The notes under the pieces: generated by a model
The model's database searches: none
Seen by the model: the letters and a program-made list of their open reading frames with translations, nothing else
What the model was told of the DNA's origin: nothing
Source of the DNA: an uncultured Bacteroidia bacterium
GTDB taxonomy: Bacteria; Bacteroidota; Bacteroidia; Bacteroidales; CAJPTX01
NCBI GenBank assembly: GCA_938040915.1
Contig: CALHZE010000252.1
Coordinates: 1-44,099, forward strand
Reading direction: 5' to 3'
Length of the DNA stretch: 44,099 nt
In this document: positions 2,985-23,297 of the stretch, one piece after another
How the letters are laid out: each line of letters opens with the position of its first letter
Position numbering within the stretch: the first letter of the stretch is position 1
Made by a program: the position numbers and the translations under genes

Positions 2985-3008
2985 CCTTGGGGGTGAATGA
3001 TGTAACAG

Positions 3009-3036
3009 GGGAGGGCTTCGAGGCTCTCCCTTTTTT
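3009..3036 (+). terminator. Rho-independent terminator after gldN
   Basis: 8-bp stem (GGGAGGGC / GCTCTCCC with one G:U pair), 6-nt loop, then TTTTTT at 3031-3036. It lies 25 nt after the gldN stop. Confidence 0.6.
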
Positions 3037-3069: not shown

Positions 3070-3077
3070 TACCTTTG
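3070..3077 (+). promoter_or_regulatory. Candidate Bacteroidota -7 promoter box (TAccTTTG) for the A1-B1-A2-B2 block
   Basis: Matches the TAnnTTTG consensus. The same octamer occurs upstream of tRNA-Cys and of rpsL. No well-spaced -33 TTTG was found, so support is weak. Confidence 0.3.
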
Positions 3078-3171: not shown

Positions 3172-4416
3172 ATGAAAACGTTCCCGTATGTAGAGAGACT
3201 CTACCCAAATACACCACCAACAACAGATCCCAGAAAGTTTGACGATGCATGTGAACTCTTTGTGGAAGGAAAAGTGAAAGAGAGCATTCATGCGCAGCTC
3301 GATTACTACAACCCGTGGCTTCGTCTCAAGTGTGATGATGATCAGAAGGGGACGGGGCAACCTGTTTGGACAAACCAACCGAAAGGGGGCTGGGCAAATC
3401 TCCGTAGGAAGCTCGAGAAACCCGTTTATGGACCAGGACGCCGCTTTACGATCCCTCACGGCTCTTTGATACTCTATTTGGAGATTACGGAGTCAGAATT
3501 CCGCCTCCGTATCCCTTTTGTGCGACTCCCGAAAGACTCTTCGCGTGTCATTGCTTTTTTGAGAGAGGTCAATGAGGTCAATTACCTTCTTGACTGGTTT
3601 CAACTTGTCTTGCGAGAGGAGGAATTGATCTGCGAGTATTCGTGTCCCCTCCCTGTTGCGAACCCAGACAAAATCTCGCGTATCCTCTCTGAGGCTTGTC
3701 TTGAGTTGTGTTATAAGGCCGAAGAGCTTGTGTATCACTTTGGAGGCGAGTGGGTCGAGAAACCTCGTTATCTTCCCTGTCCAGCGTCTGACGTAGAGCG
3801 AGTGATAAAGAGTTACCGAGCGCTTTGTGCGTGGTTGGAAGAACGCTTGCTGCAACCCTATGCACACCTGCTTGAGGATTATATTGAGGAGCTCTTTGAG
3901 CTCTCGTTTGTCTTATTGCTCTTTTTCACTCGCACGGGTGGTTATCTAGAGCAACGCATCTCGGAAATTTTTGGTAGCTCTCCTGAGCTCTATGAGGAGG
4001 GTGAGTCGCGTGGTATTGAGCATTTGAGAAAGATTGTTACTAAGCTACACGCGATTACAGATGATGAATTGCGTAGCTATTTGCATAGGAAACCGCATTT
4101 TATCCTACTCTATCAAATATTTTCTTTAGGTGAATTCCAGAACAACGTGAGCCGATATCTGTCGCCTCTCGTGAGCCCATCCTCTTATGAGTCTGAATGC
4201 GCTTTTTTGAGTGTGGTTCGTTTGATGTTGCTTCAGAGTGCGCGGCAAGACCTGCCCTCTAAGGTCAATCGTATCATTGATAAGGCGTTGCGTGCTGTCA
4301 TGGGGGTCGACAGCAGAAAGGCGATCCCCGTCTTATTAAAGGCCTGTAACGACCTATTAGACTTACCTGTGATAGGGAAAGGGGCGTTGCAGGAACGGGT
4401 AAAATGGGAGGCATAG
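3172..4416 (+). CDS. Hypothetical protein A1: chaperone-like (YbjN-like?) N-terminal domain plus all-helical C-terminal half; paralog of 5631-6809
   Basis: I start it at the internal ATG (MKTFPYVERLYPN...), which aligns with the A2 N-terminus (MKRTYTYDERLFAN...). Shared blocks with A2 include YGPGRxFTIPHG and CPxxDVxRVI. No signal peptide or TM helix. I recognise no known family. Confidence 0.7.
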   Translation: MKTFPYVERLYPNTPPTTDPRKFDDACELFVEGKVKESIHAQLDYYNPWLRLKCDDDQKGTGQPVWTNQPKGGWANLRRKLEKPVYGPGRRFTIPHGSLILYLEITESEFRLRIPFVRLPKDSSRVIAFLREVNEVNYLLDWFQLVLREEELICEYSCPLPVANPDKISRILSEACLELCYKAEELVYHFGGEWVEKPRYLPCPASDVERVIKSYRALCAWLEERLLQPYAHLLEDYIEELFELSFVLLLFFTRTGGYLEQRISEIFGSSPELYEEGESRGIEHLRKIVTKLHAITDDELRSYLHRKPHFILLYQIFSLGEFQNNVSRYLSPLVSPSSYESECAFLSVVRLMLLQSARQDLPSKVNRIIDKALRAVMGVDSRKAIPVLLKACNDLLDLPVIGKGALQERVKWEA

Positions 4417-4418
4417 TC

Positions 4419-5588
4419 ATGAAGATAAAATTAGATACACTCCCCATTGTCAAGGTGTTGACGGAGGAGGGCTCTGGAACGGGGTTCTATTTTCGCCGTC
4501 CCAATTATTTTTTGACCAATCAGCACGTGGTTGATAATGAGAAGGAGATTGCCATAGAAACCCAGCAGAAGCAACGAATGCAGGGGCGCGTAATCCTCGT
4601 AAATCAAAACCTAGACTTGGCCCTTTTTACGGTCGCTGGTGACTTGAGTGACTGGACTCCTATGGAGTTTGCCCCGAGTGATTCGTTGGATGTCGGCGAC
4701 GTAATCTATTCGGTGGGCTTCTCATTAGGAATCCCATTGACGGTCACCGAGGGGATTATTTCAGCCGTCCGTCAGGAGCTTGGGGATAGATATATGATTC
4801 AGACGGATGCTGCGATCAATCCGGGGAATTCGGGAGGCCCCCTGCTTAATGATGTGGGGCAGGTGTGTGGGGTCACGTGCAGGAAGATGTTTTTGATGGA
4901 CAATATGGGGTTCGGTATTATGCTTTCGGACATCCGTAATTTTCTAGAAAGCGCTTCTCTTTTGGAGGACGACGAGCGTTACCACTATCAGTGTCCGTCT
5001 TGTGGGCGTGTCATTTCCGACTCTTTGCTCAAATACTGTCCAGAGTGTGGCTTGGTCGTGCCAGAAGACGCCTTCCTTATCGAGGAGAAGACGGACTTTC
5101 AGAAGTTCCTTTTAGAAATTCTGAGTCTGGTGGGCTTAAACTCAGAAGAACTGCAGGGAAGCGACGTTTTTGAGTTCCATTATAAGCACCTCAAATGTAG
5201 AGGGCGGAGCGGGGAGCGAGGCGTCTTCTTTAAGTCGGTGATTAACAAATTACCGAAACAGGGACACGACGCGCTCTTTAAGTATCTTTTGAGTGCGCCC
5301 GTTGCACCTTATCGCCTTGCGGTCAACGATTCTGACATTTCTATGTCATATTTGGTACATTTGCGAGACTTGTTAGACCCAGAATTTCGGACTTTGCGCG
5401 TAAAGGAGTTTGCAGAGTTCTTAGATAAGGCCTTCTATATGAGTCAGTTGCTCGCCGATCGGTTCGCTTGTCCTTATCCCAAAATGCACGATGAGGGGAC
5501 GATGGACGACGAAGAGGAGGATACAGACGCGATGCTCCCCCAGCGATCTTCGATGGCAGAATGCTCGGTGAGCGCAAGCTCGGAATAA
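4419..5588 (+). CDS. Protease B1: leaderless trypsin-fold (S1/Trypsin_2-like) serine protease + CPxC-X11-CPxC zinc ribbon + C-terminal chaperone-like domain + acidic tail
   Basis: Triad motifs are present: TNQHVV (His), NLDLALF (Asp) and NPGNSGGPL (Ser). Zinc ribbon: YQCPSCGRVISDSLLKYCPECG. The start could be ATG 4419 (2 nt after the A1 stop) or ATG 4404 (overlapping A1). Paralog of 6837-7943. Confidence 0.8.
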   Translation: MKIKLDTLPIVKVLTEEGSGTGFYFRRPNYFLTNQHVVDNEKEIAIETQQKQRMQGRVILVNQNLDLALFTVAGDLSDWTPMEFAPSDSLDVGDVIYSVGFSLGIPLTVTEGIISAVRQELGDRYMIQTDAAINPGNSGGPLLNDVGQVCGVTCRKMFLMDNMGFGIMLSDIRNFLESASLLEDDERYHYQCPSCGRVISDSLLKYCPECGLVVPEDAFLIEEKTDFQKFLLEILSLVGLNSEELQGSDVFEFHYKHLKCRGRSGERGVFFKSVINKLPKQGHDALFKYLLSAPVAPYRLAVNDSDISMSYLVHLRDLLDPEFRTLRVKEFAEFLDKAFYMSQLLADRFACPYPKMHDEGTMDDEEEDTDAMLPQRSSMAECSVSASSE

Positions 5589-5630
5589 CCCGTATTACAC
5601 AGTGATAAGACCGCGTATTTATAGACAATA

Positions 5631-6809
5631 ATGAAAAGGACATACACATACGATGAACGTCTTTTCGCCAACGTGCCGCCATATGACAGCCCGAAGGCGT
5701 ATGAGAAGAGTCGAGATAAATTTGACCAAGGGGCGTATCTAGAAAGCGTCCATTACCTGTTGGATTCTTTTAACCCGAATGCCCGACTCGAGTATGATAA
5801 TGAGTTGGAAAGACGACCAGAAAAAAAGTCGTTCTTCAGTCGACTTTTCTCTAGATCGGGAGAAAAAAGCTACGGTCCAGGGCGAAGCTTTACGATTCCC
5901 CACGGCGCCTTGAAACTCCATATTTCAATATCCGACGAGCGCTTTGATGTCCATGTACCCTTCCTCGAGTTACCCGATGATGGGCGCGCAATCCCGATGA
6001 TGCGAACCGCGTGTGAGCTGAACTTGGGGCAGCTCGATACGGTCTTTGTAACCCTGAAGGAAAAGCAATTGCATTTTGACTTCTCGTGCCCTCTCGAATT
6101 GGCGCATCCGCGAAAGTTGCGCTATATGTTTCAAGAGCTTTGCGCAGTAGCCAATCGGCATTACTATGAGTTTATTGAGAAGTTTGGCGCAAAGCCCATC
6201 GAAGCGCCGCAAATCATCGAGTGCCCGCCGGAAGATGTGACTCGGGTGATCGGGGTGATCCGCCGTACCTCTAAAGAGATCCGAACCGCTGTGCAGGAGT
6301 GTGTGGACGAACGGAAGATTGACTCTGCATGGCACGTCTTCTTGGCCGGCTTTCTCAAGTTGAATTATGTCATCCAATCTCAAAGCTCGCTTTATTACAC
6401 GTTCCGCCGGACACTCCACGAGCTCTCTGACGACGATTTAGATCTACCTCAGACGGTCACGGCTGGCTTGCGATTCCTTGACGAACTCGACGCTAAGTCT
6501 GACGACGAGTATCGGGCATTGCTGCACAAGATGCCGATCTTTTGCTCGCTGAAGGGGGGAATCGATCTGGGGGATGTCCGTTCGGACGTCTCTCAAAGCT
6601 TAGAATCTGCAATTAAAGACTTTGAGAGCAATGCAGAGGAAGCTTGTTTGAAGTGCCTTTTCCGCATTTATAACATTTACTTCTTTAACGATGTCCCCGA
6701 GGAGTGGGATCGGGTACTTGTGCAAACACTACGTCTTTCACAAGACAAACCGTTTGATACGGCGGCTCCCATCTTGTTTAAGGGGCTGAGTGAACTGTCT
6801 AAGCGATAA
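5631..6809 (+). CDS. Hypothetical protein A2, paralog of A1
   Basis: 392 aa and alignable with A1 along its length (YGPGRSFTIPHG, FSCPL, CPPEDVTRVI, DDEYRALLHKMP). No signal peptide. Confidence 0.7.
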   Translation: MKRTYTYDERLFANVPPYDSPKAYEKSRDKFDQGAYLESVHYLLDSFNPNARLEYDNELERRPEKKSFFSRLFSRSGEKSYGPGRSFTIPHGALKLHISISDERFDVHVPFLELPDDGRAIPMMRTACELNLGQLDTVFVTLKEKQLHFDFSCPLELAHPRKLRYMFQELCAVANRHYYEFIEKFGAKPIEAPQIIECPPEDVTRVIGVIRRTSKEIRTAVQECVDERKIDSAWHVFLAGFLKLNYVIQSQSSLYYTFRRTLHELSDDDLDLPQTVTAGLRFLDELDAKSDDEYRALLHKMPIFCSLKGGIDLGDVRSDVSQSLESAIKDFESNAEEACLKCLFRIYNIYFFNDVPEEWDRVLVQTLRLSQDKPFDTAAPILFKGLSELSKR

Positions 6810-6836
6810 CGGGTATCTCAAAAAGGAAGGAACAAT

Positions 6837-7943
6837 ATGGCCAATCATATAGATTATACCTCCGTGGTAAAGATTATCACGAGTGACGGCTCCGGATCGG
6901 GATTCTTTTTCCGGCGTCCGAATTATTTTATTACCAATTTCCACGTCGTCGAAGGATACCGAGATGTTACCGTCGAACTGCAGGATGAAGAGCGTCTCCG
7001 CGCTTCGGTGTTGCTCGTGAGTCAACACTTAGACCTCGCGATTATTCGTGTGGAGGGGGACTTTGAAAAATGGACTCCGTTAGAATTTTGCGAAGAAGAC
7101 GCATTGCAACTCTCTGACAAGATCGTGGTCGGGGGGTTTGCCTTGGGAAAACCGTTTTCCATAACCGAGGGAGTGGTCTCTTCGCCGCGTCAGAAGGCCG
7201 ATGGTCGTTATTTGATTCAAACCGATGCGGCTGTAAACCCAGGGAATTCGGGAGGACCGATGTTTAACTCGGAAGGGAAAGTCAGTGCCGTTGTCGTGAG
7301 CAAAATTAAGGGTGCCGAGAATGTCGGTTTCGGGATTCCCATTGCCGATGTTAAAAAGGTCTTTAAGGCGTTAGGAGAAATATCAGACGAGGCGCGTTAT
7401 TACTATCAGTGCCCTGGTTGTGATAAACCACTAATGGATGAAACAGCAAAGTTTTGCCCATCGTGTGGCGCAGATATCCCGCGAGAAGCCTTTAATGAAA
7501 AGACCAAGTCAGACTTCACTAAATTGGGCGAAGAAATCATCCGCGCAATAGGCATCGACCCACTTCTTGCGAATAATGGTGATGAGGATTGGAAGTTTTA
7601 CTACAAGGGGGCTTTAATCCGTGCTTATGATTACGGGCGAAGCTTTATTATCTTCTTGAGCAATATCAATTTGCTACCAAAGCAAGAGCTCCAACCTCTC
7701 TTTGAGTATATGCTTTCGAATCCGGTGGCCCCCTACCAGCTGGGGATTCGTGAAAACGATGTGGTACTCTACTCCTGTATCCACTTGACCGATTTGCAGA
7801 ATGAGAAGCATCGTGACCGGATTATTAAGGAGTTGGCGGCTTTGCCTGAAAAGGCAGCAGAGTTGGACGATTTCTTGAATACGAAGTTCGGGTGTCGTTT
7901 CCCGGAACGGAAAGATTCGGTCGAGCAGTCCGCTGAGGCTTAG
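6837..7943 (+). CDS. Protease B2: trypsin-fold serine protease + zinc ribbon + chaperone-like C-terminal domain; paralog of B1
   Basis: Triad motifs ITNFHVV, HLDLAII and NPGNSGGPM. Zinc ribbon YQCPGCDKPLMDETAKFCPSCG. Shared blocks with B1: FRRPNYF, GRYxIQTDAA, NPVAPY. Confidence 0.8.
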   Translation: MANHIDYTSVVKIITSDGSGSGFFFRRPNYFITNFHVVEGYRDVTVELQDEERLRASVLLVSQHLDLAIIRVEGDFEKWTPLEFCEEDALQLSDKIVVGGFALGKPFSITEGVVSSPRQKADGRYLIQTDAAVNPGNSGGPMFNSEGKVSAVVVSKIKGAENVGFGIPIADVKKVFKALGEISDEARYYYQCPGCDKPLMDETAKFCPSCGADIPREAFNEKTKSDFTKLGEEIIRAIGIDPLLANNGDEDWKFYYKGALIRAYDYGRSFIIFLSNINLLPKQELQPLFEYMLSNPVAPYQLGIRENDVVLYSCIHLTDLQNEKHRDRIIKELAALPEKAAELDDFLNTKFGCRFPERKDSVEQSAEA

Positions 7944-8096: not shown

Positions 8097-9887
8097 ATGG
8101 ATATCCGGAATGTGGCGATTATTGCACACGTAGACCATGGGAAGACGACCTTGGTCGATAAGCTTATTTCTTACACGAAAGCTCTCGGACGAGACACACA
8201 GTCCGGAAATTTGGATACTAATGAGCTTGAGCGAGAACGCGGGATTACGATCCTGAGTAAGAACGTCTCTATGCACTATGCAGGGTGTAAGATAAACATC
8301 ATCGACACGCCAGGGCACGCTGATTTCGGGGGAGAGGTCGAGCGTGTGCTCAATATGGCCGATGGGGTGCTCTTGGTTGTGGATGCTTTTGAGGGCACTA
8401 TGCCACAGACACGTTTTGTCTTGCAAAAGGCGTTAGAGCTCGGCTTGAAACCGATTGTGGTCATAAATAAGGTAGACAAACCCAATTGTCGCCCAGAACA
8501 AGTGCAAGAACAAGTCTTCGACTTAATGTTTAGTCTCGGGGCGACGGAGGAGCAGTTAAATTTCCCAACCCTGTATGGGAGTGCTAAGCAAGAGTGGATG
8601 TCTACTTCGGCTTCGGAGAAAACGGAAAATATTGAGCCACTGCTCAAAGCGATCGTGCAGTATATACCAGCGCCGGAGGTCGAGGAAGGGTCGTTGCAGT
8701 TGCTCATCACCTCTATCGAATATTCCAAGTATGTCGGGCGTATTGCTGTGGGGAAGCTCCGTCGCGGGGTTTTGAAAAAAGATATGCCCATTATGCTCTC
8801 CATGCGCGACGGCTCGTTGCGGAGGATGCAGCTGAAAGATCTTTATGTCTTTGAGGGGTTGACTAAGACCCCTGTCGAAGAGGTGCAGCCTGGAGATATT
8901 TGTGCGCTTGTCGGACTGGAAGGCTTCGAAATTGGGGGCACCGTTTGTGATGTCAATAACCCAGAACCGCTGCCGGTGTTGAAGGTCGATGAGCCCACGA
9001 TGAGTATGCTCTTTACTATCAACAATTCGCCGTTCTTTGGCAAAGATGGGAAGTTTGTCACATCGCGTCACTTACGCGAACGTCTCGAGCGAGAGTTAGA
9101 GTGGAATCTTGCGCTGCGGGTAGAACCGGGACCGAGTGCCGATTCGTTTATCGTTTATGGGCGAGGGATACTTCATCTTTCTATCCTTATCGAAACGATG
9201 CGGCGCGAGGGCTATGAGCTTCAGGTCGGGCAACCTCAGGTGGTGATTAAGGAAATTGACGGGAAGAAGTGCGAACCGATTGAGGTGATGAGGGTGGATC
9301 TCCCTACCGAGATGTCTGGCAAAGCGATAGAGCTCGCCACACAGCGCAAGGGTACGTTGATCTCGATGCAAGAGGTTGAAGATCGTACACACATCGAGTT
9401 TGAGATCCCGTCGCGTGGTCTTATCGGGCTTCGGAGTCAGCTCCTTACCGCCACAAACGGAGAGGCTATTATGACGCACCTTTTGAAAGGCTTTGAGCCG
9501 TATCGCGGCGAAATAGAGGCGCGAACGAATGGGTCGCTGATTGCGTTAGAATCGGGAAAGGCGATCCCGTATGCCGTTGGGAAGTTGCAAGACCGTGGTG
9601 TCTTTTTTATCGATCCGCCGGAAGATGTCTATGCCGGAGAAATTGTCGGCGAAAATACTCGCGGTAATGATATTACGGTGAATGTGTGTAAGGAGAAGAA
9701 ACTCTCGAATATGCGAGCCTCAGGGAGTGACGAAAAAATAATCTTAGCCCCTCCCGTGAAATTCTCTCTTGAAGAAGCTTTAGAGTACATCAGAGAAGAT
9801 GAGTATGTGGAGATTACGCCTAACGCAATGCGACTTCGGAAGATCGAGCTTGACGAAACCGCGCGCAAACGTCAACAACGAAGCTAG
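8097..9887 (+). CDS. typA: Translational GTPase TypA/BipA
   Basis: 596 aa. [23 protein letters not shown] (G1), [14 protein letters not shown] (G3), NKVD (G4); the length and C-terminal domain are typical of BipA. Confidence 0.95.
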
Positions 9888-9919
9888 AATCACGCCACAA
9901 CCGAATACTGACAGAGATT

Positions 9920-12529
9920 ATGCTATCTACTCGCTATGAGCCTACAGAAATAGAGCGTAAGTGGTACGCTTGGTGGTTAGAGAAGAATTTATTCCACTCC
10001 GAACCAGATGACCGAAAACCCTACACCGTGGTGATCCCGCCGCCTAATGTGACGGGGATTCTTCACATGGGGCACATGCTGAATAACACCATCCAAGATG
10101 TACTGGTGCGTCGGGCTCGTATGCGAGGCCTTAATGCGTGTTGGGTACCAGGGACAGATCACGCCTCAATTGCAACAGAAGCGAAAGTGGTCGAGAAGCT
10201 CCGTAAGGAGGGGATTGATAAGCATTCTCTATCTCGCGAAGATTTCCTAAAACATGCTTGGGAGTGGACGCATAAGCACGGAGGTATCATCCTTGAGCAA
10301 TTGAAACGATTGGGAGCATCGTGTGATTGGCAACGGACCGCCTTCACGATGGACGAGGTGAGGAGTGAGAGTGTGATTCATGTCTTTGTCGATCTTTACC
10401 GTAAGGGGTTGATTTATCAAGGCGTCCGTATGGTAAACTGGGATCCGCAAGCTCAGACGGCGCTCAGTGACGAAGAGGTGCTCCATGTGGAAGAGCAGTC
10501 TAAGCTCTATTATCTGCGTTACCAGATCGTCGGTAGCCAACGCGCGCTTATTGTGGCAACGACGCGTCCAGAAACGATAATGGGCGATGTGGCGGTATGT
10601 GTGAATCCGAATGACGAACGTTATAAGGAACTTTTATCTTGCCGCGTAATTGTCCCGTTGGTGAATCGCGAAGTCCCGATCGTTGCCGATGAGCATGTAG
10701 ACCCAGCCTTTGGTACAGGGATTCTCAAGATTACGCCGGCGCACGCCATTGACGACTACGAGATCGGCTTGAAGTATAATCTCGAGGTTATTGATACCTT
10801 CACCGAACAGGGGACAATCCGAGAAGGGGTTGGGCTCTATGAGGGTATGGATCGTTTCGATGTCCGCAAGCAAATCGTAAAGGATCTTGCTGCGGCAGGG
10901 CTATTAGAAAAAGAAGAAGATTATACCCATACCATTGGGATTAGTGAGCGAACGAAGGCGGTCATAGAGCCAAAGTTGTCTACTCAGTGGTTTTTGAAAG
11001 TTGAGTCACTTGCCAAGCGAGCTCTCCAAGCCGTGGAAAATGGGGAAATTGAGCTTATGCCATCTCGCTTTGTCGGCGTTTATCGGCATTGGTTAGAGAA
11101 TTCGCGTGATTGGTGTATTTCGCGTCAGCTTTGGTGGGGGCATCGCATCCCAGCGTGGTATTTGCCGGATGGCAGAGTCGTTATTGCGCATAATGCTGAG
11201 GAAGCGCTTGTTGAGGCGCAAAAGCTGCAATCCACGATTCGTCCGGAAGACTTGAAGCAGGACTAGGATGTCTTAGACACGTGGTATAGTTCGTGGTTAT
11301 GGCCGATGTCGGTGTTTGATGGTATCCTGCATCCCGACAACCCAGACTTCCGGTACTATTACCCCACGACCGATCTTGTGACAGCCCCAGACATCATCTT
11401 CTTTTGGGTGGCGCGAATGGTTATGGCTGGGTATGAGTATGTAGGGAAGCGCCCATTCGAACGGGTCTATTTCACAGGAACCGTGAGAGATATGCTACAT
11501 CGGAAAATGAGCAAATCTCTTGGGAATAGTCCTGATGCGCTGGAACTCATTGATAAGTTCGGCGCGGATGGGGTTCGTTGCGGTATGCTTTTTTGCTCTG
11601 CGGCGGGAAATGACTTGATGTTTGAGGAAAAACTCACTGAGCAGGGACGTAACTTTAGTAACAAGATTTGGAATGCCTTTCGTCTCGTCCAAGGGTGGAA
11701 GGAAGATTTGGTCGATGCCCCTAATCCGGAACGAGGGCATGCGATAGCGATGTTTGAGGCGCGTATGAACGAAGTGCTCTTGCTCGTCGAAGAGGATATG
11801 AAAGATTATCGCCTCTCTGAGGCGTTACTTGAACTCTATCGCCTCTTCTGGGATGACTTCTCTTCGTGGCTTCTCGAGTTGGTAAAACCTCGGGGGGCGC
11901 AAAAGATGGATAGAGACTCGCTCAATGCGATAGAGCAGATATTTGATCGTCTCTTGCAGCACCTACATCCTTTTATGCCATTCATTACAGAGGAGCTTTG
12001 GCACAATTTGGGCGATGTGACGGCACGAGCTGAGCGGAGCATTATGCAGGAACTCCTCTCTGAACCAATTGCACCCGATTCTTCTTTGCTGGAAGAATTC
12101 CAACTTTTGAAGGATCTGGTCAGTGGTGTGAGGGCGTTGCGACAATCGAAGGGACTCTCTTTGAAAGAGCGCCTCCCGTTGTATTATCGTGGTCGTTTTG
12201 CTATGACATCTTCTGGAGTGCAGCTTTTAGAGATGCTCGCTTCGGTTGACGTGAAGGGAGATGTGACGGAAATACCTGCCAAGTCTGCCTCCTTTATGGT
12301 CGGGCTCTTGGAATGTTTTATTCCGCTTGGTGACAAGCTAGATAACGAGACAGAGAGAGAGAAGACGGAAAAAGAGATCGCGTATTACGAGGGGTTGCGT
12401 GCCTTGATTCTTAAGAAGTTAGAGAACCCGAAATTTGTGAATAAAGCGCCTGCTGCGGTGATCGAGGCCGAAAGGAAAAAGTTGGCAGATACGGAGTCTA
12501 AGCTCATGGCTCTTCGTGAACAGATTTAA
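9920..12529 (+). pseudogene. valS: Valine--tRNA ligase (ValS) reading frame interrupted by one in-frame TAG (11264-11266); otherwise intact
   Basis: The ORFs 9920-11266 and 11306-12529 are in the same frame. The HIGH motif ([13 protein letters not shown]) is in the first part and KMSKS (RKMSKSLGN) is in the second. Sequence across the stop reads LKQD*DVLDTWYSSWLWP, and the equivalent E. coli segment is RDEDVLDTWFSS. The stop therefore replaces a conserved Glu (GAG to TAG). Confidence 0.9.
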
Positions 12530-12546
12530 GAAAGCCGCTTCGTATA

Positions 12547-13278
12547 ATGTTTCACCGCATAGTCCTCTCTTCTGTCGACTCTACGAATAAGTATGTCGAA
12601 GAGCATATCGAGGAGCTACACCCACCGACGCTCGTCTTTGCCGCACAACAAAAGCGCGGAAAGGGACAGGGGACGAATCGTTGGGATTCGCAGTTAGGCG
12701 ATGTCACATTTACGCTTTTTTCGGGCTTGGGGGCAATCCAAGTAACATCCTTCTTCTTGATATCGCAAATGGTCTCTTTGGAGATTGTGGAACTATTGGA
12801 TGAGTTCGGTATTGCGGCACGGATTAAATGGCCTAATGACATCTTGGTCGGCTTGGAAAAAATCTGTGGGATTCTTATTCGTACGCAGGTAGAGGGATCT
12901 CTTTTTAAGAGTGCAACAATCGGGATTGGCTTGAATCTCGAAAAGCGCTTTCAGAGCCCGAAACATTATAACCCGCCCGCGACGGCTGTTAAGAACTTCG
13001 TGCCTGAGTTCTCGCTGTCGCCTATGCAGGTCAGTGATCGTCTCGCGGAGCGCATCCTGTCGGCAATTGAAGGGTATACCGCAGATAAATCTCAGTCTAT
13101 CAGGGCTGCCTATTGGGAAAAAATGTTTCGGAATCAAGGGATGCATCCTTTTCTTGTGCGGGGAACGCGCATTTATGCACGCATCACCTCGGTCTGTGAC
13201 AACGGAGAATTGCATCTCCAAGATGCGCAAGGGAAGGCATATCATTGTTCTTTCAAAGATGTCGGCTTCCTCTTTTGA
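12547..13278 (+). CDS. birA: Biotin--[acetyl-CoA-carboxylase] ligase (BirA-type, no N-terminal HTH)
   Basis: 243 aa. QQKRGKGQGTNRWDS matches the GRGRxGRxW biotin-loop motif, followed by KWPNDI. Confidence 0.8.
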   Translation: MFHRIVLSSVDSTNKYVEEHIEELHPPTLVFAAQQKRGKGQGTNRWDSQLGDVTFTLFSGLGAIQVTSFFLISQMVSLEIVELLDEFGIAARIKWPNDILVGLEKICGILIRTQVEGSLFKSATIGIGLNLEKRFQSPKHYNPPATAVKNFVPEFSLSPMQVSDRLAERILSAIEGYTADKSQSIRAAYWEKMFRNQGMHPFLVRGTRIYARITSVCDNGELHLQDAQGKAYHCSFKDVGFLF

Positions 13279-15142: not shown

Positions 15143-15270
15143 CCGCCCCCTGTTGGGTGCGTCCGGAGCGTTTTATATCTTTGCTTTACAAAGTCGGTAC
15201 GTCTCTTGTTTATGCAATAGATACACAACACTTTAGTCGTTTGTGTGTGACAGTAAAAAGAAAATGTGTC

Positions 15271-17169
15271 ATGTTGCTGAAGAATGTCTCTCTTGCGACT
15301 AAGGTCGTCGGTCTAACAACCCTAGCCGCTACGTTTGTGGCGGGGTTACTCTTGGTTATTCTCTATGTGACCTCTATGGACGCTGGTAATAAGGCAGCAA
15401 AGGCTCGCATAGAGTATTTGGGACAGGATGTCTCTTTTGAACTGGGGCTTAAAGTAAGTCGAGGAGTGAATCTTGCGTATGTCATTTCGCGTATGCTCTC
15501 GACAGAGCAGCAGAAGGGGCATCAGCGCGAGGATCTGATTAACTATTGCGAGAGTGCGTTACACTTCTATCCAGATATTTTGGGGGTCGTGCTTGCTTTT
15601 GAACCTGATGGCTTTGATGGGGAGGATGCGGCGCATATCGGTGAAAGAGGCTCTAATTTTCAGGGACGTTTTGTCCCCCTTATCTCTCGCTCGGCAGATG
15701 GTAAATCTATCCATGTAGATACGGCTCAAAATTACCGGTTAGACACTCCAGACTCGTGGTATTTCAATCCGAAGCGGGATCAACGGACCTATGTTACTGA
15801 GCCTTATAGCGCCGTGATTGACGGGCGAATGCGTACCATGTTTACTGCGAGTGTCCCAGTGATTTACCAAGGGAATTTCCGTGGTGTGGTGGAAGTCGAT
15901 ATTGAGTTAGACAAAGTAACGCAGTGGATTTCGAATCTTGAACTCTTGGGAGGAAAGGTGCGCACTACGATTTTTACTCCTCAACGGAAGTTACTCACGT
16001 CTTCTAAACCAATAAATGAGGAGATCGAGCTCCCAGAGGTAGAGTCTACGCCCGATCTTTCGGAGGAGGAAGAGGTGGAGATACGAGAAAGTAAAGCGGT
16101 TTATCATGAGAAGAATGGCGTGATGACGCTTTATACGCCGCTCTATTTCGGATCGAGTCGTTACCCCGTAATCTTGTCAGTGTCGGTACTTCGGAAAGAG
16201 ATTCTTAAGTCTCTATATAATGCCGTGGCGTTTTCAATACTCATCACACTAGTATTGGCGATATTCTTTACAACATTTTTCGCCGTACTCGTCTCGCGCC
16301 TGATTCGACCGTTAACGGTTATTACAAGGGAAATTATGCGTATCTCGCAAGGCGATCTTACGGTAGAGTCGATTCGTGTCGGTTCGCGTATGGATGAGGT
16401 TGGGCGTATCGCGCTTTACTTTAACGATATGGCGGCGAAGTTGCGCTCTATGATAGCCGAAATCCAATCTTCGACAGAACGGATGACAAGTACGAGCACA
16501 CAGATACAGAGCTCTTCGGAGGCTGTCGCAAATTCTGCGGCGAATGAGGCCGCATCGACTCAGGAAATACAAGCGCAGTGCTCTAGTATTTTGGATATCT
16601 ATAATTCGGATCGTAACGAATTAAACGAGGCGTATTCGCTTGTAGATCAAATTACAGCGAGTATCGTGGGCTTGACAAATGGCGTCAATGAGACGCACGA
16701 TCGTCTCAACGACATTGTTAAGTATGAGAAAAAACTTATCGGCATTGCACAACAGACGAATATCTTAGCGTTGAATGCAGCTGTCGAAGCAGCTCGAGCT
16801 GGCGAGCATGGTCGCGGTTTTGCCGTAGTCGCAGGTGAGGTGCGGACCTTGGCGGAACAAAGTGCAGAAATAGTGAAGAATGTTACGGATTTAGGACAGA
16901 GTTCGATGCAGGCTTCGCAGGAGACGATCGCATCGATGGGAGAGCTTCAGCGGATGATGGGGGGGATTCTCGTGAGTGTTACTGCCTTGAATGATAACGG
17001 AGAGCGCATCCTTGATTTCTTGCAGCAGATTACGACGGCGGTTACTTCGTTAAGTGATACCGCTCAAGAAAATGCTGCTGTCGCCGAAGAGTTGGCGGCG
17101 GGAGGACAGACGCTAACCGATCATGCGGAGTTACTCCTCGCAGAGGTGGAAAAGTTTAAGGTGCAGTAG
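15271..17169 (+). CDS. Methyl-accepting chemotaxis protein (two TM helices, periplasmic Cache-like sensor, HAMP, MCP signalling domain)
   Basis: I start it at ATG 15271 (MLLKNVSLATKVVGLTTLAATFVAGLLLVILY = TM1). A Cache-like block (YFNPKRDQRTYVTEPY...VVEVDIELD) is followed by TM2 and HAMP (RLIRPLTVITREIMRISQGDLT). The highly conserved MCP hairpin QQTNILALNAAVEAARAGEHGRGFAVVAGEVRTLAEQS is present. Confidence 0.88.
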   Translation: MLLKNVSLATKVVGLTTLAATFVAGLLLVILYVTSMDAGNKAAKARIEYLGQDVSFELGLKVSRGVNLAYVISRMLSTEQQKGHQREDLINYCESALHFYPDILGVVLAFEPDGFDGEDAAHIGERGSNFQGRFVPLISRSADGKSIHVDTAQNYRLDTPDSWYFNPKRDQRTYVTEPYSAVIDGRMRTMFTASVPVIYQGNFRGVVEVDIELDKVTQWISNLELLGGKVRTTIFTPQRKLLTSSKPINEEIELPEVESTPDLSEEEEVEIRESKAVYHEKNGVMTLYTPLYFGSSRYPVILSVSVLRKEILKSLYNAVAFSILITLVLAIFFTTFFAVLVSRLIRPLTVITREIMRISQGDLTVESIRVGSRMDEVGRIALYFNDMAAKLRSMIAEIQSSTERMTSTSTQIQSSSEAVANSAANEAASTQEIQAQCSSILDIYNSDRNELNEAYSLVDQITASIVGLTNGVNETHDRLNDIVKYEKKLIGIAQQTNILALNAAVEAARAGEHGRGFAVVAGEVRTLAEQSAEIVKNVTDLGQSSMQASQETIASMGELQRMMGGILVSVTALNDNGERILDFLQQITTAVTSLSDTAQENAAVAEELAAGGQTLTDHAELLLAEVEKFKVQ

Positions 17170-17230: not shown

Positions 17231-18169
17231 TTACCGTTGGTAAAAACGCTCTAAGACACGTAGGCTACAGAAATCTTCCAATAGTGGATTGAAGAATTGA
17301 GCGCAATATGTATTGGCGTTTTCTATGATCGTATTTGCCTCTGCTGGGTGCGCTAGGTAATAGCGCAGCTGTTCTTCGAGGTCTGCATAGTCGGCACGGA
17401 TCTCGATGTAGTGTTCGCCACCTCTCAGCCGTCCCTCCATAAACCATGTCTCTATGGTCGGGCGCGGCATTACGGCTATGGAGTGAGACGACATAATCCA
17501 TTTGAGATTGGTTGCTACGTCGTTCCCTTGCAAACTTAAGATGAATTTGTAGTCGAGGTGTTGAGGTATTGTCTTTTTAGGACGATGCCATTCGGGGCGT
17601 CCTATCCCGTTTTTTCCGACATCGCCTAATTCGCATAGGGGATGCCCGAAATACCTGTCAAAGAACGCGTAACGGTGTTGTTGATAGATCGCCCCCATCC
17701 CGATAAGCCGGTCTTGTTTCTCTTCCCACCTCTTCTTGTCGCGAACCCATACAAAATGTCGCGCTTTATCCATATTCAGCAAGACACTGTTCTTATTGTC
17801 TGAGGTGATTGGACGGCTTTTGACAAGGGAAGGAATGGATGGGATAGCGGTTACATCCCCAAAAAGGAAGTCTATCGGGAGCGTCGCAGCACAAAAGCGA
17901 GCATACTCGTAGGTATCAAAGTAATAAGCCTTGGGGGACTTCGGGTGACGGAGGTCGCCTATGACGTGAGTTTTTGAAAAGGGGAGACCGACTAAGGAGG
18001 CGCAATAGTACCTAGCTCGCTCCTCGGCAAGAGCGAGTTGTGTCGTAGAGAGCTGAGATGCTAAGTCGCGAAGTTGAGATGAAAGCGTCTTTTTCGTCGG
18101 AAAGACGCTGTACCAGTACCCGCGGAGATAGTAAGGGAGTTTGCTCCTTTTGAGAATTCGTTTTTGCAT
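17231..18169 (-). CDS. Glycosyltransferase family 90 / CAP10-like (lipopolysaccharide-modifying, LpsA-like) protein
   Basis: 312 aa. The C-terminal half (YKFILSLQGNDVATNLKWIMSSHSIAVMPRPTIETWFMEGRLRGGEHYIEIRADYADLEEQLRYYLAHP) matches the pattern I associate with the CAP10/GT90 domain. No signal peptide is evident. Confidence 0.6.
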   Translation of the reverse strand: MQKRILKRSKLPYYLRGYWYSVFPTKKTLSSQLRDLASQLSTTQLALAEERARYYCASLVGLPFSKTHVIGDLRHPKSPKAYYFDTYEYARFCAATLPIDFLFGDVTAIPSIPSLVKSRPITSDNKNSVLLNMDKARHFVWVRDKKRWEEKQDRLIGMGAIYQQHRYAFFDRYFGHPLCELGDVGKNGIGRPEWHRPKKTIPQHLDYKFILSLQGNDVATNLKWIMSSHSIAVMPRPTIETWFMEGRLRGGEHYIEIRADYADLEEQLRYYLAHPAEANTIIENANTYCAQFFNPLLEDFCSLRVLERFYQR

Positions 18170-18275
18170 GTCGTAGTTCCTTGTCTAAACAAAAGTAGAA
18201 CAAACTCGGGTAAGTAGATCTTGAGTTGCCTCTCCTTGTGGAAAAATGCTGAACCGATACTCTTTTAGCTAAACA

Positions 18276-18307
18276 TTTGGTAGTGTGGATTATTGTGTTT
18301 ACCTTTG
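18276..18307 (+). promoter_or_regulatory. Candidate promoter of the ribosomal superoperon (-33 TTTG, 20-nt spacer, -7 TAccTTTG)
   Basis: TTTG at 18276-18279 and TACCTTTG at 18300-18307, ending 34 nt before the rpsL ATG. Confidence 0.5.
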
Positions 18308-18341
18308 TGATTGTTTATTATAGCCAAGTGTACAGTTTACG

Positions 18342-18716
18342 ATGCCGACAATACAACAGTTAGTGAGAAAAGGTCGTACGGTTTTAGAGACGACAAGTAA
18401 AGCACCTGCGTTAGATGCTTGCCCCCAGCGTCATGGGGTTTGTGTACGTGTATATACGACGACACCCAAGAAGCCGAATTCTGCGATGCGTAAGGTCGCT
18501 CGTGTGAAATTGTGTAACGGTAAGGAAGTGAATGCGTATATCCCAGGAGAAGGACATAATTTGCAGGAACACTCGATTGTATTAGTTCGTGGTGGTCGTG
18601 TGAAGGATTTGCCAGGGGTACGTTATCACTTGGTGCGAGGCACGCGTGATGCGTCGGGTGTAGAAGCTCGTCGTCAACGTCGTTCGAAGTATGGCGCTAA
18701 GCGTCCGAAGAAATAA
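18342..18716 (+). CDS. rpsL: 30S ribosomal protein S12
   Basis: [12 protein letters not shown]...[15 protein letters not shown]... Confidence 0.97.
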
Positions 18717-18743
18717 GTCTGTTGAGAGGAAAGTTTTTTTACA

Positions 18744-19220
18744 ATGAGAAAGAGTAAGCCAAAAAAGCGAGTATTGTTACCAGATCCTACCTATTCAGAC
18801 GTAGAGGTAACTCGTTTTGTCAATCATTTGATGTATGATGGCAAGAAGAGTATTGCGTTCGGGATTTTCTACGAAGCAATCGATCTGGTTAATGAGAAGA
18901 TGACTGTTGAAGGCAAGTCTGCGTTGGATATTTGGCGGGAGGCGCTTTTGCGCGTAACTCCTCAGCTGGAGGTTCGTAGTCGCCGTGTTGGGGGGACGAA
19001 CTTGCAGGTACCGCAGGAAGTTCGCCCAGAGCGTAAGGTTAGCTTGGCTATGAAAAATTTGATCGCGGCTGCACGCAAACGCTCGGGGCACAGTATGAGT
19101 GAAAAGCTCGCAGCCGAAATTATGGCGGCATATAATGGTGAAGGACAGGCGTATCGTCGTATGGAGGAACTCCATAGAATGGCGGAAGCTAATAAGGCCT
19201 TCGCGCATTTTAGACGATAG
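18744..19220 (+). CDS. rpsG: 30S ribosomal protein S7
   Basis: 158 aa; position after rpsL; the ending ...[10 protein letters not shown] is typical of S7. Confidence 0.95.
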
Positions 19221-19258
19221 TTTTGTTTTTAGGTAGGCTTGTTTAGTGTGAAGGTCAG

Positions 19259-21376
19259 ATGGCTAGGGATTTATCTTTGACTCGTAACGTGGGGGTTATG
19301 GCGCATATTGATGCGGGTAAAACCACCGTTTCTGAGCGTATGTTGTTCCTCTCTGGTAAAATTCATAAGATAGGGGAGACGCATGACGGAAACTCCACGA
19401 TGGACTCTGATAAGCAGGAGCGGGAACGTGGGATTACGATTGCTTCTGCCGCAACAACGTTTTATTGGAACTGTGCGGGGAAGCAGTTTCAGTATAATTT
19501 GATTGATACGCCAGGGCACGTAGACTTCGCGGTCGAGGTCGAACGTTGTCTGCGTGTGCTTGATGGCGCTATTGCTGTCTTCTGCGCTGTTGGTGGGGTG
19601 CAGCCTCAAAGTGAGTCTGTGTGGCGTCAGTCGGAACGTTATGGGGTGCCCAAGATCGCATTTGTTAACAAAATGGATCGTAATGGGGCTAACTTCCAGA
19701 ACGTGGTCTCTCAGATGGCGGATCGCTTACATGTCGTTCCTTGCCCTATCTTCCTTCCTATTGGTCATGAGTCCTCGTTTCGTGGCGTGATTAACGTGAT
19801 TACGGGGAAGGCTTTTGAGTGGACTCCGAATCCCGATCCTAAGGGGTATCCGATTATGCAGAGTTGTGACATTCCTCAGGATATGTTAGAGGAAGTGAAG
19901 GCAGCGCGTTATCATCTCATGGAGTCTATTGCCGTGGCAGACGATGAGTTCATGATGAAGTTCCTCGATGCTACCGATTCGATTACGGAAGAGGAGATTA
20001 TTCGTGTGACGCGCAAGGCGACGCTCGAACGCAAGATCATCCCTGTCTTGTGTGGTTCTGCAAAGCAGGATATCGGGGTTGAGTGTCTGATGGATGCTGT
20101 GAGTCTTTATCTTCCTAGTCCGTTGGATCGCGGTGTCCTAGAGGCGATGAATGCCGATAACCCTGAGGAAAAGGAAACACGCGAGATCTCTCCCAACGAA
20201 GCCTTTAGTGGTCTTGTCTTTAAGATCATACAAGGGGATCACGGATCTTTGGTCTTTGTGCGAGTATATAGTGGACAGTTGCATCCGGGGGACACGATTT
20301 ATAATATGCGTTCCCGTCAGAAAGTCCGTGTGAGTCGTCTTGCTCAGCTGAATGCGGCAAAACAGATTAGCATAGATTTCTGTGACGCGGGTGATATCTG
20401 TGCGTTGATTGGTGTTAAGGATTTGAAGACGGGCGATACGCTTTGTGATGAAAAGCGGAAGCTTCTGCTCTCTGCAATAAACTTCCCTGAGCCGGTTATT
20501 AAGCAGGCGGTTGAGGCAAAGTCACAATCGGATGTCGCTCTGTTGGAAAAGGGGTTGCAGATTATTGCAGAAGAGGATCCTTCCTTCAAGTTCTATACCG
20601 ATGAAGAGAGTGGGCAGACAATTATCGCCGGTATGGGTGAGTTGCATCTTGAGGTGCGTATGACGGAATTAGACGAGCGCTTTGGTCTAAAGGTGAATCT
20701 CGGTGCGCCTCAAGTTTCTTACCGTGAAGCGATTACCACTACGGTAAATCACCGTTCTGTTTATAAGAAGCAAACGGGGGGGCGTGGTAAGTTTGCCGAT
20801 ATCATCTTCGACATGTCGCCGGCTGACGACGGAGTTGAGGGATTGCAGTTTATTAACGAAGTTACTGGAGGGAATATTCCGAAGGAATTTATACCATCAG
20901 TACAGAAGGGTTTTGAGTCTGCTCTGAAGAATGGTCCTCTTGCTGGCTATGAGATGTCAAGTCTTAAGGTCGTTTTGAAGGATGGTTCGTTCCACCCAGT
21001 AGACTCTGACCAAATCTCGTTTGAGTTGTGTGCACGTCAGGCTTTCCGTGAGGCTTGTGAAAAAGCAAACCCTGTTTTGCTTGAGCCTATGATGAAGTTG
21101 ACTGTCACGACTCCGGATGAGTATGTGGGGGATATTCAGGGAGATATCAACAAGCGGCGTGGGATGATTGTGAATGTTGCGGGCGAGATGAATGCGCAAG
21201 ACATTACGAGTATGGTGCCGCTAGCCAATCTCTTTGGTTACATCACCGTGTTACGTACTCTTAGTCAAGGTCGTGCTTACTCTACTATGGAGTTTGACCA
21301 TTTTGAGCCTTTGCCTGAGGGGTTAGCTAAGGAAGTGATAGAGAAAAGAAATGCTGCGAAGAGCGGCAAGAAGTAA
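19259..21376 (+). CDS. fusA: Elongation factor G
   Basis: 705 aa; [22 protein letters not shown]; str operon context. Confidence 0.97.
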
Positions 21377-21390
21377 ATAGGTGTTTTTCG

Positions 21391-21702
21391 ATGAGTAACG
21401 AAAAGATTCGTATCAAATTAAGTTCGTACGATCATAACCTGTTAGACAGCGCAGTGGAACGTATTGTGAAAACTGTGAAGTTGTCAGGCGCTGTGGTTTG
21501 CGGACCGATACCGTTGCCGACACATCGTCGGATCTTTACGGTAAATCGTTCGACGTTTGTAAACAAGAAGTCGCGGGAGCAGTTCCGTCTTGACTCTTAC
21601 AAGCGTTTGTTGGATGTTTACAACCATGGGACACAGACCGTTAGTGCGCTCATGAAGTTGGAACTTCCTAGTGGTGTTTCTGTCAAGATTGAGGTAAAGT
21701 AA
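21391..21702 (+). CDS. rpsJ: 30S ribosomal protein S10
   Basis: 103 aa; [14 protein letters not shown]...; first gene of the S10 block. Confidence 0.95.
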
Positions 21703-21711
21703 GGGGGGAAG

Positions 21712-22332
21712 ATGGCAGGAATTATTGGTAGAAAGGTGGGTATGACTTCGGTTTTCGATGCCGAGGGGCATAATATCCCATGTACGGTCATTGAGGCGGG
21801 ACCGTGTGTTGTGACACAGGTTCGGACTCTCGAGAATGATGGATATGTTGCTTTGCAGCTAGGCTTTGCAGAAAAGAAAGAGAAGAACACAACGAAGGCT
21901 CTCTTGGGGCATTTTGCTAAGGCGAATACAACTCCGAAGCGTTGTCTTGTCGAATTCAAGGATTGGGACAAAGACTATCAGTTAGGAGATGTGATTAGCT
22001 TGGGAGAGCTTTTCGAAGGCGTCGAGTGGGTCGATATCCAAGGAGTGTCTAAGGGTAAAGGTTTTCAAGGCGTGGTAAAGCGTCATGGTTTTGCCGGCGT
22101 CGGAGAAATTACTCACGGTCAGCATAACCGTCAACGTGCTCCGGGTTCTGTAGGAGCGTCTTCTTATCCGAGTCGAGTTTTCCCAGGCTTGCGTATGGCG
22201 GGACAAACAGGAGGCAATAAGGTAACGGTATCGAATTTGCGCGTCATTCGTATTATTCCAGAATCGAATCTTTTGTTGGTAAAAGGGTCGATCCCCGGTG
22301 CAAAGGGCTCGTATGTTATCATCAATAAGTAG
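21712..22332 (+). CDS. rplC: 50S ribosomal protein L3
   Basis: [16 protein letters not shown]...; 206 aa. Confidence 0.95.
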
Positions 22333-22348
22333 TTAGGGGGTGCTGTCA

Positions 22349-23002
22349 ATGGATTTGAAAGTTTTGAATAAGGCAGGGCAGCCCACTAGCAACGTGGTGA
22401 CATTGCCAGATTCTATATTCGGCGTGGCGGAGAATAACCATATCCTTTATATGGCTGTCCGTCAATTCCTTGCGAACCAACGTCAGGGTACGCATAAGTC
22501 TAAGGAGCGTAGTGAGCTTTCAGGTAGTACTCGGAAGTTGAAGCGTCAGAAGGGGACAGGGGGCGCGCGAGCAGGGGATATCAATTCTCCTTTGTTCAAG
22601 GGAGGAGCGCGGGTTTTTGGTCCTCGTCCTCGTGATTATCGTTTTAAGTTGAATAAGCAGGAAAAGGATCTTGCGCGTCGTTGTGCTTTGAGTAACCGTG
22701 CGCAGAACAATGCGGTTCTTGTGGTAGAAGATCTCTCCTTCGAGAAACCAAGTACTAAGGAATTTGTGCAGTTGTGTAAAAATCTGGGTATCTCGACAAA
22801 GCGCTCGCTTTTCTTGCTCCCAGAAGCTGATTCTTTTGTATCTTTGTCGGCAAGAAATTTGGGTCTCGTGCGGGTGATGCCGGTTGATTTGCTTAATGCT
22901 TACCGTGTTTTGGAAGCTCAGGTAGTTGTTATGACGGTGAGTGCTTTGGGAGAGTTGTCATCTTGTTTTGCTAAAGAGGAGTCGGTAGAGGGAAATGAGT
23001 AA
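22349..23002 (+). CDS. rplD: 50S ribosomal protein L4
   Basis: I use ATG 22349 (MDLKVLNK...). The ORF track starts 9 nt earlier at a GTG. Operon order supports the call. Confidence 0.9.
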
Positions 23003-23297
23003 GTTGGGTAGTATTTTGATACGTCCTGTCATTTCAGAGAAGATGACAAAGCAGGCAGAGCGTCTGCATCAGTATGCGTTTATCGTATCGATGAAGGCGA
23101 ATCGTATCGAGATTGCTAAGGCGATAGAGGATTTTTATGGCGTACGTGTTGAGTCTGTGAATACGCTGCGTTATGCAGGTAAGTTGCGCGCTCGTAGTGC
23201 ACGTCAAGTGCCGGTCATCGGTCGTACCGCGAATTTCAAGAAAGCGATCGTGACGATTCACAAGGACGATACAATTGATTTCTTTAGTAACATTTAG
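22995..23297 (+). CDS. rplW: 50S ribosomal protein L23
   Basis: 100 aa; [12 protein letters not shown]...; overlaps the rplD end by 8 nt. Confidence 0.92.

Follow-up and report, generated by a model that had tools for sequence, protein, structure and literature searches.

A two-gene module of Bacteroidota that pairs an HtrA-type protease with a chaperone-fold protein, duplicated between gldN and typA

What do four uncharacterised genes encode that stand, as two diverged copies of one pair, between the secretion and gliding genes gldM/gldN and the housekeeping gene typA of a Bacteroidia bacterium? The locus lies on contig CALHZE010000252.1 (assembly GCA_938040915.1) of an uncultured member of the Bacteroidales; the whole stretch that was analysed, 44,099 nucleotides of the forward strand, is called the window here. 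The four open reading frames (ORFs), which belong to two families named A and B, follow each other as A1-B1-A2-B2:

3172-4416, + strand: A1, 414 residues, a fast-evolving A-family paralogue
4419-5588, + strand: B1, 389 residues, an HtrA-type protease with a C4 zinc ribbon, a TY-chaperone-like C-terminal domain and an acidic tail
5631-6809, + strand: A2, 392 residues, the slowly evolving copy and counterpart of the single A gene in related genomes
6837-7943, + strand: B2, 368 residues, the slowly evolving protease copy

Our reading, to which we give a probability of roughly one half, is that A would be a membrane-proximal adaptor that docks to the protease B through chaperone domains and serves regulated or quality-control proteolysis. 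The spacers measure 2 nt (A1-B1), 42 nt (B1-A2) and 27 nt (A2-B2), and an alternative GTG start of A1 at 3136 is favoured by gene callers. The flanking genes (gldM/gldN upstream, typA/valS downstream) uphold the position between gldN and typA that was given in a first-pass annotation made from the sequence alone, and the intact array also occurs in independent assemblies of at least four other samples (L012-L015 in our numbering of loci). End-to-end alignment gave 29% identity over ~400 residues for A1 and A2 (E=5e-49) and 41% over 360 residues for B1 and B2 (E=2e-109). These similarities are far above chance and the genes are intact same-strand paralogues, so that the reported duplication pattern is real; the motif blocks quoted for it were found in both alignments. 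The remark that the copies are too diverged for the duplication to be seen in the DNA was also essentially correct, as comparison of A1-B1 with A2-B2 gave no megablast-level match and sensitive blastn gave four short collinear patches (37-68 nt, ~78% identity) over the most conserved motifs.

What kind of enzyme is B? The parts of the slowly evolving copy are as follows:

6837-7376, + strand: HtrA-type protease domain of B2 (residues 1-180), a pair of barrels in the AlphaFold2 (AF2) model
6942-6944, 7032-7034 and 7248-7250, + strand: catalytic residues His36, Asp66 and Ser138 of B2, invariant in 37/37 aligned family members
7392-7481, + strand: C4 zinc ribbon of B2 (Cys192, Cys195, Cys207 and Cys210, all invariant; model residues ~186-215)
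7500-7892, + strand: C-terminal TY-chaperone-like domain of B2 (residues ~222-352, alpha-beta-beta-beta-alpha-beta-beta-alpha), homologous by profile comparison to the chaperone domain of A

Trypsin_2 matched B1 at E=1e-31 to 8e-31 and B2 at E=1e-28 to 5e-28, and the closest PDB sequences and folds were those of HtrA, DegQ, DegS and MucD (1l1j, E=7e-24). The best NCBIfam matches, to DegP/HtrA models (TIGR02037, E=1e-37), cover the protease region only, with a score of 128 bits compared to the cut-off of 416 for the full-length HtrA family. The AF2 model of B2 has three parts and is compact and confident throughout (predicted local distance difference test, pLDDT, 90.5; predicted template modelling score, pTM, 0.87); its protease fold begins ~15 residues from the N-terminus, and Foldseek aligned it with DegQ, DegP and DegS at a root-mean-square deviation of ~2 Å over ~190 residues (E=1e-15). 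The four zinc-ribbon cysteines and the His/Asp/Ser triad are invariant in an alignment of 37/37 full-length B relatives, and a PDZ domain was matched neither in B1 or B2 nor in any of these 37 homologues. Behind the ribbon, model residues 226-351 run in the order alpha-3beta-alpha-2beta-alpha, and the profile of this domain matched the YbjN-like structure 2plg over almost its full length (E=0.006) and, weakly, a type III secretion system (T3SS) chaperone, 1s28. A simple hydropathy check (not SignalP or TMHMM) found no hydrophobic N-terminal region in A1, B1, A2 or B2 and no 19-residue window with a mean Kyte-Doolittle hydropathy of at least 1.6 in any of them, which agrees with the earlier statement that the four proteins have neither signal peptide nor transmembrane helix. 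B is therefore predicted to be cytoplasmic. Thus B is an HtrA-type serine protease, by prediction a cytoplasmic one, in which a C4 zinc ribbon and a TY-chaperone domain take the place of the usual PDZ domain, and its first description as a leaderless trypsin-fold protease with a zinc ribbon stands on the Trypsin_2 matches, the HtrA fold, the invariant residues and the hydropathy check. At one locus (L111, 2968-4071) the B gene is split over three reading frames on a contig at ~2x coverage, which is probably an assembly error and not decay.

Next to this protease, what is A? Its domains could be placed as follows:

3442-3750, + strand: TY-chaperone domain of A1, of the T3SS chaperone/YbjN fold (residues ~91-193; Pfam TY-Chap1 E=0.021, sub-threshold)
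5877-6188, + strand: TY-chaperone domain of A2 (residues ~83-186, beta-beta-beta-alpha-beta-beta-alpha; from AF2 and Foldseek)
6216-6806, + strand: C-terminal all-helical domain of A2 (residues ~196-392), with no confident sequence or structure match

In the AF2 model of A2 (mean pLDDT 89.7) an N-terminal helical hairpin is followed by the chaperone domain (strands in 86-113 and 139-154, helices at 120-133 and 160-185) and by the all-helical domain. Foldseek matched the middle domain with probability 1.0 to CesT, VecA, SchA, SicP, SpcU, SycN/YscB and YbjN/AmyR, at target-normalised template modelling scores (TM-scores) of 0.45-0.65 for T3SS chaperones and YbjN; the complexes CesT-Tir, SicP-SptP and SpcU-ExoU and the pair SycN-YscB (1xkp) are among the structures matched. 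At the level of the family, Pfam TY-Chap1 (PF22551) was matched at E<0.1 by 28 of 34 A-family members (best E=9e-8). A contains a domain of the T3SS-chaperone/YbjN fold (a TY-chaperone domain), and the family-level Pfam matches and Foldseek both bear out the early impression that A is chaperone-like. For the helical domain, the profile found only spike/haemagglutinin coiled-coil noise among PDB sequences, a per-member Pfam scan gave nothing significant, and Foldseek gave no confident match in PDB and BFVD. Hypoth_Ymh (7/34 members) and HEPN (1/34) had come up for this domain at E of 0.0015 or higher and were rejected, as there is no conserved Rx4-6H motif. The DDExRxxLH block is restricted to A proteins of the window's clade. 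Additional domains end some members of both families: a SHOCT domain in B-family proteins such as P0107 and P0120, and a SUKH-1/SMI1-KNR4 domain at the C-terminus of one A homologue (P0273). These rare fusions might be hints to partners or oligomerisation.

As both proteins carry a domain of this fold, we asked how the two domains are related. With alignments of 193 and 248 distinct sequences, hhalign compared the chaperone domains of A and B at 97.3% probability (E=2e-11, 104 columns), and both have H-G-S at the first strand and D-x-(F/L)-x3-FG closing the last helix; judged by these profiles, the two domains are homologous. T3SS chaperones are obligate dimers, heterodimers such as SycN-YscB included. 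In a partial-Mantel analysis of 101 A-B pairs, made without control for phylogeny, the partial r was 0.45 between the chaperone domains of A and B compared to 0.23 between the A chaperone domain and the protease domain; it was 0.56 between the A helical domain and the protease domain. This co-variation is in line with docking of chaperone domain to chaperone domain and is suggestive only.

Are A and B always found together? As a search by words with A1 alone returned 2 proteins, a profile of the A family was needed; it gave 33 matches and then 233 representatives (E<=1e-3) among 1.84 billion proteins. In a survey of one genome per species (80 loci, +/-4 kb around each pair), A relatives were found across the Bacteroidales (Alistipes, Butyricimonas, Odoribacter, Dysgonomonas, Tannerella, Prevotellaceae, Muribaculaceae and Bacteroides thetaiotaomicron, L051), the Flavobacteriales (Aquimarina and Spongiivirga, plus, outside this survey, Capnocytophaga), the Chitinophagales and the Sphingobacteriales. 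In 79/79 testable loci A is followed, adjacent and on the same strand, by a B with the chaperone-like C-terminal domain; the sole remaining locus of the 80 is cut off by a contig edge. The reverse approach, a metagenome search with the full-length B alignment, gave 80 loci, 16 of them true B-family and 64 ordinary HtrA proteases without the C-terminal domain, and A lies directly upstream of B in 14/14 that could be tested. The adjacency of the pair across genomes, which the first-pass annotation had left to be checked, is thus confirmed from both sides. Junctions between A and B are short or overlapping across loci. Clustering of the flanking ORFs of the 80 loci gave no conserved third gene, only antisense artefacts inside B and clade-specific neighbours, and the flanking genes vary between clades. 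The A-B pair is a self-contained two-gene operon, strictly paired in the four orders sampled. For the pair proteins of B. thetaiotaomicron a cluster look-up gave no annotation. Bins of metagenome-assembled genomes labelled Treponema (L046), Endomicrobium (L070) and Cellulomonadaceae (L082) hold A-B pairs of the Bacteroidales type; these contigs are most likely mis-binned and do not represent an occurrence outside Bacteroidota.

Could A and B be co-regulated in one operon and still not interact? Linkage in an operon does not by itself establish that two proteins touch. However, no testable locus in any of the orders departs from the pairing, the junctions are short or overlapping, both proteins have a homologous domain of a dimeric fold, A and B sped up jointly after the duplication (see below), and there is the domain-specific, if weak, co-variation. 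We regard two proteins without contact as improbable.

How, then, might the pair work? In the adaptor reading, A and B would associate through their paralogous chaperone-fold domains, and this docking would make a platform for peptide binding on the cytoplasmic side of the inner membrane, to which it would be tethered in many lineages by the tail of A. There, an extended client polypeptide would be captured, and the platform would either hand it to the protease or gate the protease; functionally it would stand in for the PDZ domains of classical HtrA proteases. More tentatively, the pairs may form an undescribed class of cytoplasmic HtrA-type proteases with substrate selection or activation by a T3SS-chaperone-fold heterodimer, one domain of which would sit on the protease and the other on a membrane-tethered partner with a new helical domain; the duplicate in the window may then be two insulated pairs with different clients.

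The cue for the membrane comes from the C-termini of A proteins. Among 126 full-length A representatives with no more than 50% identity to each other, scored with a loose motif pattern, 40 have a short, basic and amphipathic tail of the kind [KR][KR]GFFxKLFG (e.g. KKGFFSKLFG) and 8 have a hydrophobic tail anchor; the tail pattern was found in 6% of random interior control windows. The membrane-targeting sequence of E. coli MinD is KGFLKRLFGG (PMC5471200), and the A protein P0164 ends in GGGFLKRLFS. In window-clade A proteins without the tail the motif is internal (A2, L001, L009/L017, L018-L022 and P0123-P0127); the loose pattern did not detect an internal motif in the A2 orthologue of L016 and the near-identical P0154, nor in L067/P0130. 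The two positions in the window are:

5823-5852, + strand: internal MinD-like motif KKSFFSRLFS of A2 (residues 65-74), in the loop ahead of the chaperone domain
3385-3414, + strand: degenerate amphipathic motif GGWANLRRKL of A1 (residues 72-81), at the same loop position as KKSFFSRLFS of A2

As the 10-residue motifs could not be told apart by hydrophobic moment, the case for membrane targeting rests on the similarity to MinD and on the tail anchors of homologues. The tails of many A homologues resemble those of the MinD/FtsA type, with a hydrophobic anchor instead in some proteins; unlike MinD and FtsA, A has no ATPase, and proteins of the window's clade have the motif internally (A2) or in degenerate form (A1). 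Membrane association of A would be better founded for the family overall than for A1 and A2.

Several observations weigh against the adaptor reading. No tail motif as defined is present in 78/126 A representatives, and the C-termini of A1 and A2 do not have one either. The internal motif of A2 falls in a loop that is modelled with low confidence, and its hydrophobic moment does not stand out. The match of A1 to TY-Chap1 reaches 14.9 bits compared to a gathering threshold of 27, and A2 has no match. The partial-Mantel values, which fit docking of the domains, ignore phylogeny. Finally, the helical domain, which makes up half of A, could carry an activity that lies outside the adaptor model.

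The same fold could also be read in another way, in which A would be a dedicated chaperone or escort, a stoichiometric inhibitor or a substrate of B, and not an adaptor that supplies B with clients; A would hold B inactive or unfolded until its delivery, for instance to membrane, vesicles or an export route. In T3SS, the gene of a class I chaperone typically lies beside that of the single effector which the chaperone binds and keeps secretion-competent, and the Foldseek matches include chaperone-effector complexes (CesT-Tir, SicP-SptP and SpcU-ExoU). The A-B adjacency is strict, and the flexible loop and tail motifs of A could serve to bind the protease and not to anchor A in the membrane. However, B has no signal peptide and no type IX secretion system (T9SS) C-terminal domain, and Bacteroidota are not known to have a T3SS. 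B also has its own homologous chaperone-fold domain, and therefore domain-domain dimerisation fits better than wrapping of an unfolded effector segment. Furthermore, the model of B is compact and confident, and the hydrophobic tail anchors of some A proteins indicate a membrane location of A. We consider an escort, inhibitor or substrate role of A unlikely.

Could the pair instead be a defence or conflict module? The first-pass annotation had suggested a protease-effector conflict or defence module, or a toxin-antitoxin-like pair in which A restrains or targets B; spelled out, B would be a latent toxic protease and A an inhibitor or sensor that releases it on phage infection or stress. Some defence systems use trypsin-like proteases as effectors, and partial matches to the RT-Protease_XI and LmuA models of PADLOC were found for B; these matches are limited to the generic protease domain, however, and A has no PADLOC match. 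The rate of evolution is higher in A than in B and higher in pair 1 than in pair 2, and the SUKH-1 domain fused to one A homologue is typical of immunity proteins. In addition, TY-Chap1 was defined from predicted conflict systems, namely anti-ADP-ribosylation systems centred on ADP-ribosylglycohydrolase (ARG) (Iyer et al. 2022, PMC9503650). The Pfam family of the TY-Chap1 proteins of the ARG-centric systems is the one matched by 28 of 34 A-family members, and both are predicted peptide-binding chaperones; in contrast to those systems, the partner here is a protease, and the pair is stably chromosomal and not in variable islands. Genes for an ADP-ribosylglycohydrolase, a Nudix/WYL regulator, a phosphatase or a nuclease were not found among the called neighbours of the pair. 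Against a defence role, there is one pair per locus in 79/80 species-representative loci (within the +/-4 kb), there is no conserved third gene, and five annotated contexts have ordinary chromosomal flanks (typA, valS, ribosomal proteins, peroxiredoxin, PBP1 and nutrient-uptake genes) in which no defence, restriction, integrase or nuclease neighbour was recognised. The tblastn searches with A2 and a typical member, P0128, found no relatives in 72,556 plasmids and 50,697 phages, and a scan of IMG/VR (2.9 million viral contigs) found none either. The ratio of nonsynonymous to synonymous substitution rates (dN/dS) of pair 2 is 0.02-0.04, which is strong purifying selection. Together, the ordinary flanks, the missing mobile copies, this selection and the single pair per locus speak against the suggestion, and we judge a defence role to be a poor bet. 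P0099, a truncated hybrid of trypsin and N6-DNA-methylase and probably a chimera made in assembly, gave the only methyltransferase signal nearby.

As the pair is next to gldN in the window, does it belong to the T9SS? A second suggestion of the first-pass annotation was a proteolytic regulator of T9SS or gliding components; such an accessory factor would be co-expressed with gldKLMN. Two elements lie between gldN and A1:

3007-3032, + strand: intrinsic-terminator-like hairpin (11-bp stem with 6 G-C pairs, then a T run), just 3' of the gldN stop (2984)
3070-3077, + strand: TACCTTTG, putative promoter motif that fits the -7 consensus TAnnTTTG of Bacteroidetes (consensus match only), ~95 nt upstream of the ATG of A1

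The hairpin suggests that gldKLMN transcription ends before the A-B module. TAnnTTTG was used because a sigma-70 promoter scan is uninformative for Bacteroidota; with 49 matches compared to 25 expected, it is enriched in the window. The pair is found near gldN in the window and only in its close relatives (L009, L012-L016 and, with rearranged neighbours, L001-L003), while elsewhere, as in Capnocytophaga, Alistipes, Butyricimonas, Aquimarina and Chitinophagales, its neighbourhoods are unrelated. Compared to window positions 8097-13278, L001-L003 have the typA-valS-lipoate ligase block inverted and upstream of a single A-B pair, which means that the neighbourhood from gldN to A-B is rearranged even among relatives. 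Moreover, an A-B pair is encoded by B. thetaiotaomicron, which is porT-negative and was the negative comparator in the identification of the T9SS genes (PMC5445135). Because of the clade-limited adjacency to gldN, the hairpin and promoter motif between gldN and A1 and the pair in T9SS-negative B. thetaiotaomicron, a link to the T9SS is unsupported. A linkage to gldKLMN across genomes did not hold beyond the window's clade, and a role of the pair in T9SS or gliding appears very improbable.

When did the array arise, and what has happened to its two pairs since? The next relatives (L009/L017) have the order gldN-A-B-typA-valS with a single pair, whose B is 86-87% identical to B2 and whose A is 72% identical to A2; the duplication is absent there. 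A1 and B1 are each nearest to the A2/B2 clade and not to other Bacteroidales, which indicates that the duplication took place inside this lineage. Outside the window's species the duplicated array was found in L016 only, and a short contig (L011) has an A1-type gene and the start of a B gene. A2-B2 is the ancestral copy and A1-B1 a lineage-restricted tandem duplicate. The window was compared with L016, where synonymous sites are saturated and the ratios are therefore rough:

A1: 57% amino acid identity, dN/dS ~0.20
B1: 76% amino acid identity, dN/dS ~0.08
A2: 84% amino acid identity, dN/dS ~0.04
B2: 92% amino acid identity, dN/dS ~0.02

All four genes are nevertheless clearly subject to purifying selection, and the rate of evolution is two to five times higher in pair 1 than in pair 2. 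Between the paralogues, identity is 46-47% in the protease and zinc ribbon, 34% in the B chaperone domain and 24% in the A helical domain. The faster joint divergence of A1 and B1 under purifying selection suggests a second, insulated specificity. Thus, the notion of an old duplication kept as a unit is right in that the duplication is real and needs qualification as to its age and evenness: it was found only in the window's species, L016 and L011, and pair 1 has evolved faster.

Finally, we asked how far the pair is covered by what has been described. With HtrA, DegP, DegQ and DegS (MEROPS S1C), B shares the chymotrypsin fold, the His-Asp-Ser triad and the GNSGGP motif, and as in HtrA a domain of the peptide-binding regulatory type comes after the protease domain; unlike HtrA, B has no signal peptide or membrane anchor (hydropathy check) and no PDZ domain, and has an obligate partner gene, A. 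The fold in A and in the C-terminal domain of B is that of T3SS class I chaperones and YbjN (CesT, SycE, SycN-YscB, YbjN, AmyR and Tll0839/2plg), which elsewhere dimerises, also as heterodimers, and binds extended peptides. In contrast to these small stand-alone chaperones, it sits here inside proteins of ~400 and ~370 residues, one of them protease-fused; A has three regions in 392-414 residues, the sequence similarity of A1 and A2 themselves to T3SS chaperones and YbjN is marginal, and there are no T3SS genes nearby. The proposed logic, in which a peptide-binding partner or domain selects clients or activates the protease, resembles that of ClpXP-SspB and of DegS with outer-membrane protein peptides, although the folds are unrelated, there is no AAA+ unfoldase and the likeness is functional only. 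No full-length model in PADLOC 2.0, NCBIfam or Pfam matched the pairing, and full-text literature searches returned no description of it, so that the initial failure to recognise it as part of a described system has held. The pair appears to combine known folds, a protease and a peptide-binding adaptor, in an undescribed architecture.

If the adaptor reading is true, a conserved and unstudied cytoplasmic protease system is present in many Bacteroidota, among them the gut model B. thetaiotaomicron, and in this system an HtrA-type protease would have a new substrate-recognition device of the T3SS-chaperone/YbjN fold instead of PDZ. For the YbjN/TY-chaperone fold, which is poorly understood, there would be a definite partner and a role beyond secretion that can be tested, and Bacteroidota, in which envelope biogenesis is unlike that of Proteobacteria, would gain a membrane-proximal proteolysis module. 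The duplicated array provides paired paralogues for mapping the residues that set specificity. The pair has no bearing on the T9SS and shows no sign of being a defence system.

Other features of the window were also recorded. In valS (9920-12529) there is an in-frame TAG at 11264-11266, where the same-species contigs L012 and L013 carry GAG and an intact 869-residue ORF; the TAG probably reflects a mistake in sequencing or assembly, or a minor variant. A receptor gene of the methyl-accepting chemotaxis type, with PDC sensor, HAMP and MCP signalling domains, lies at 15157-17169, and the relative L009 has it too. Such a receptor is unusual in Bacteroidia, as the phylum is generally without flagellar chemotaxis. 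At 36373-40473 a protein of 1366 residues with BspA-type leucine-rich repeats is encoded in DNA with a local G+C of 0.38-0.41, compared to ~0.48 elsewhere, and this gene may have been acquired horizontally. The ribosomal-protein/SecY cluster at 18000-36000 has a positive GC skew of 0.2-0.3 and nearly all of its genes on the + strand, which fits a highly expressed block of leading-strand operons.

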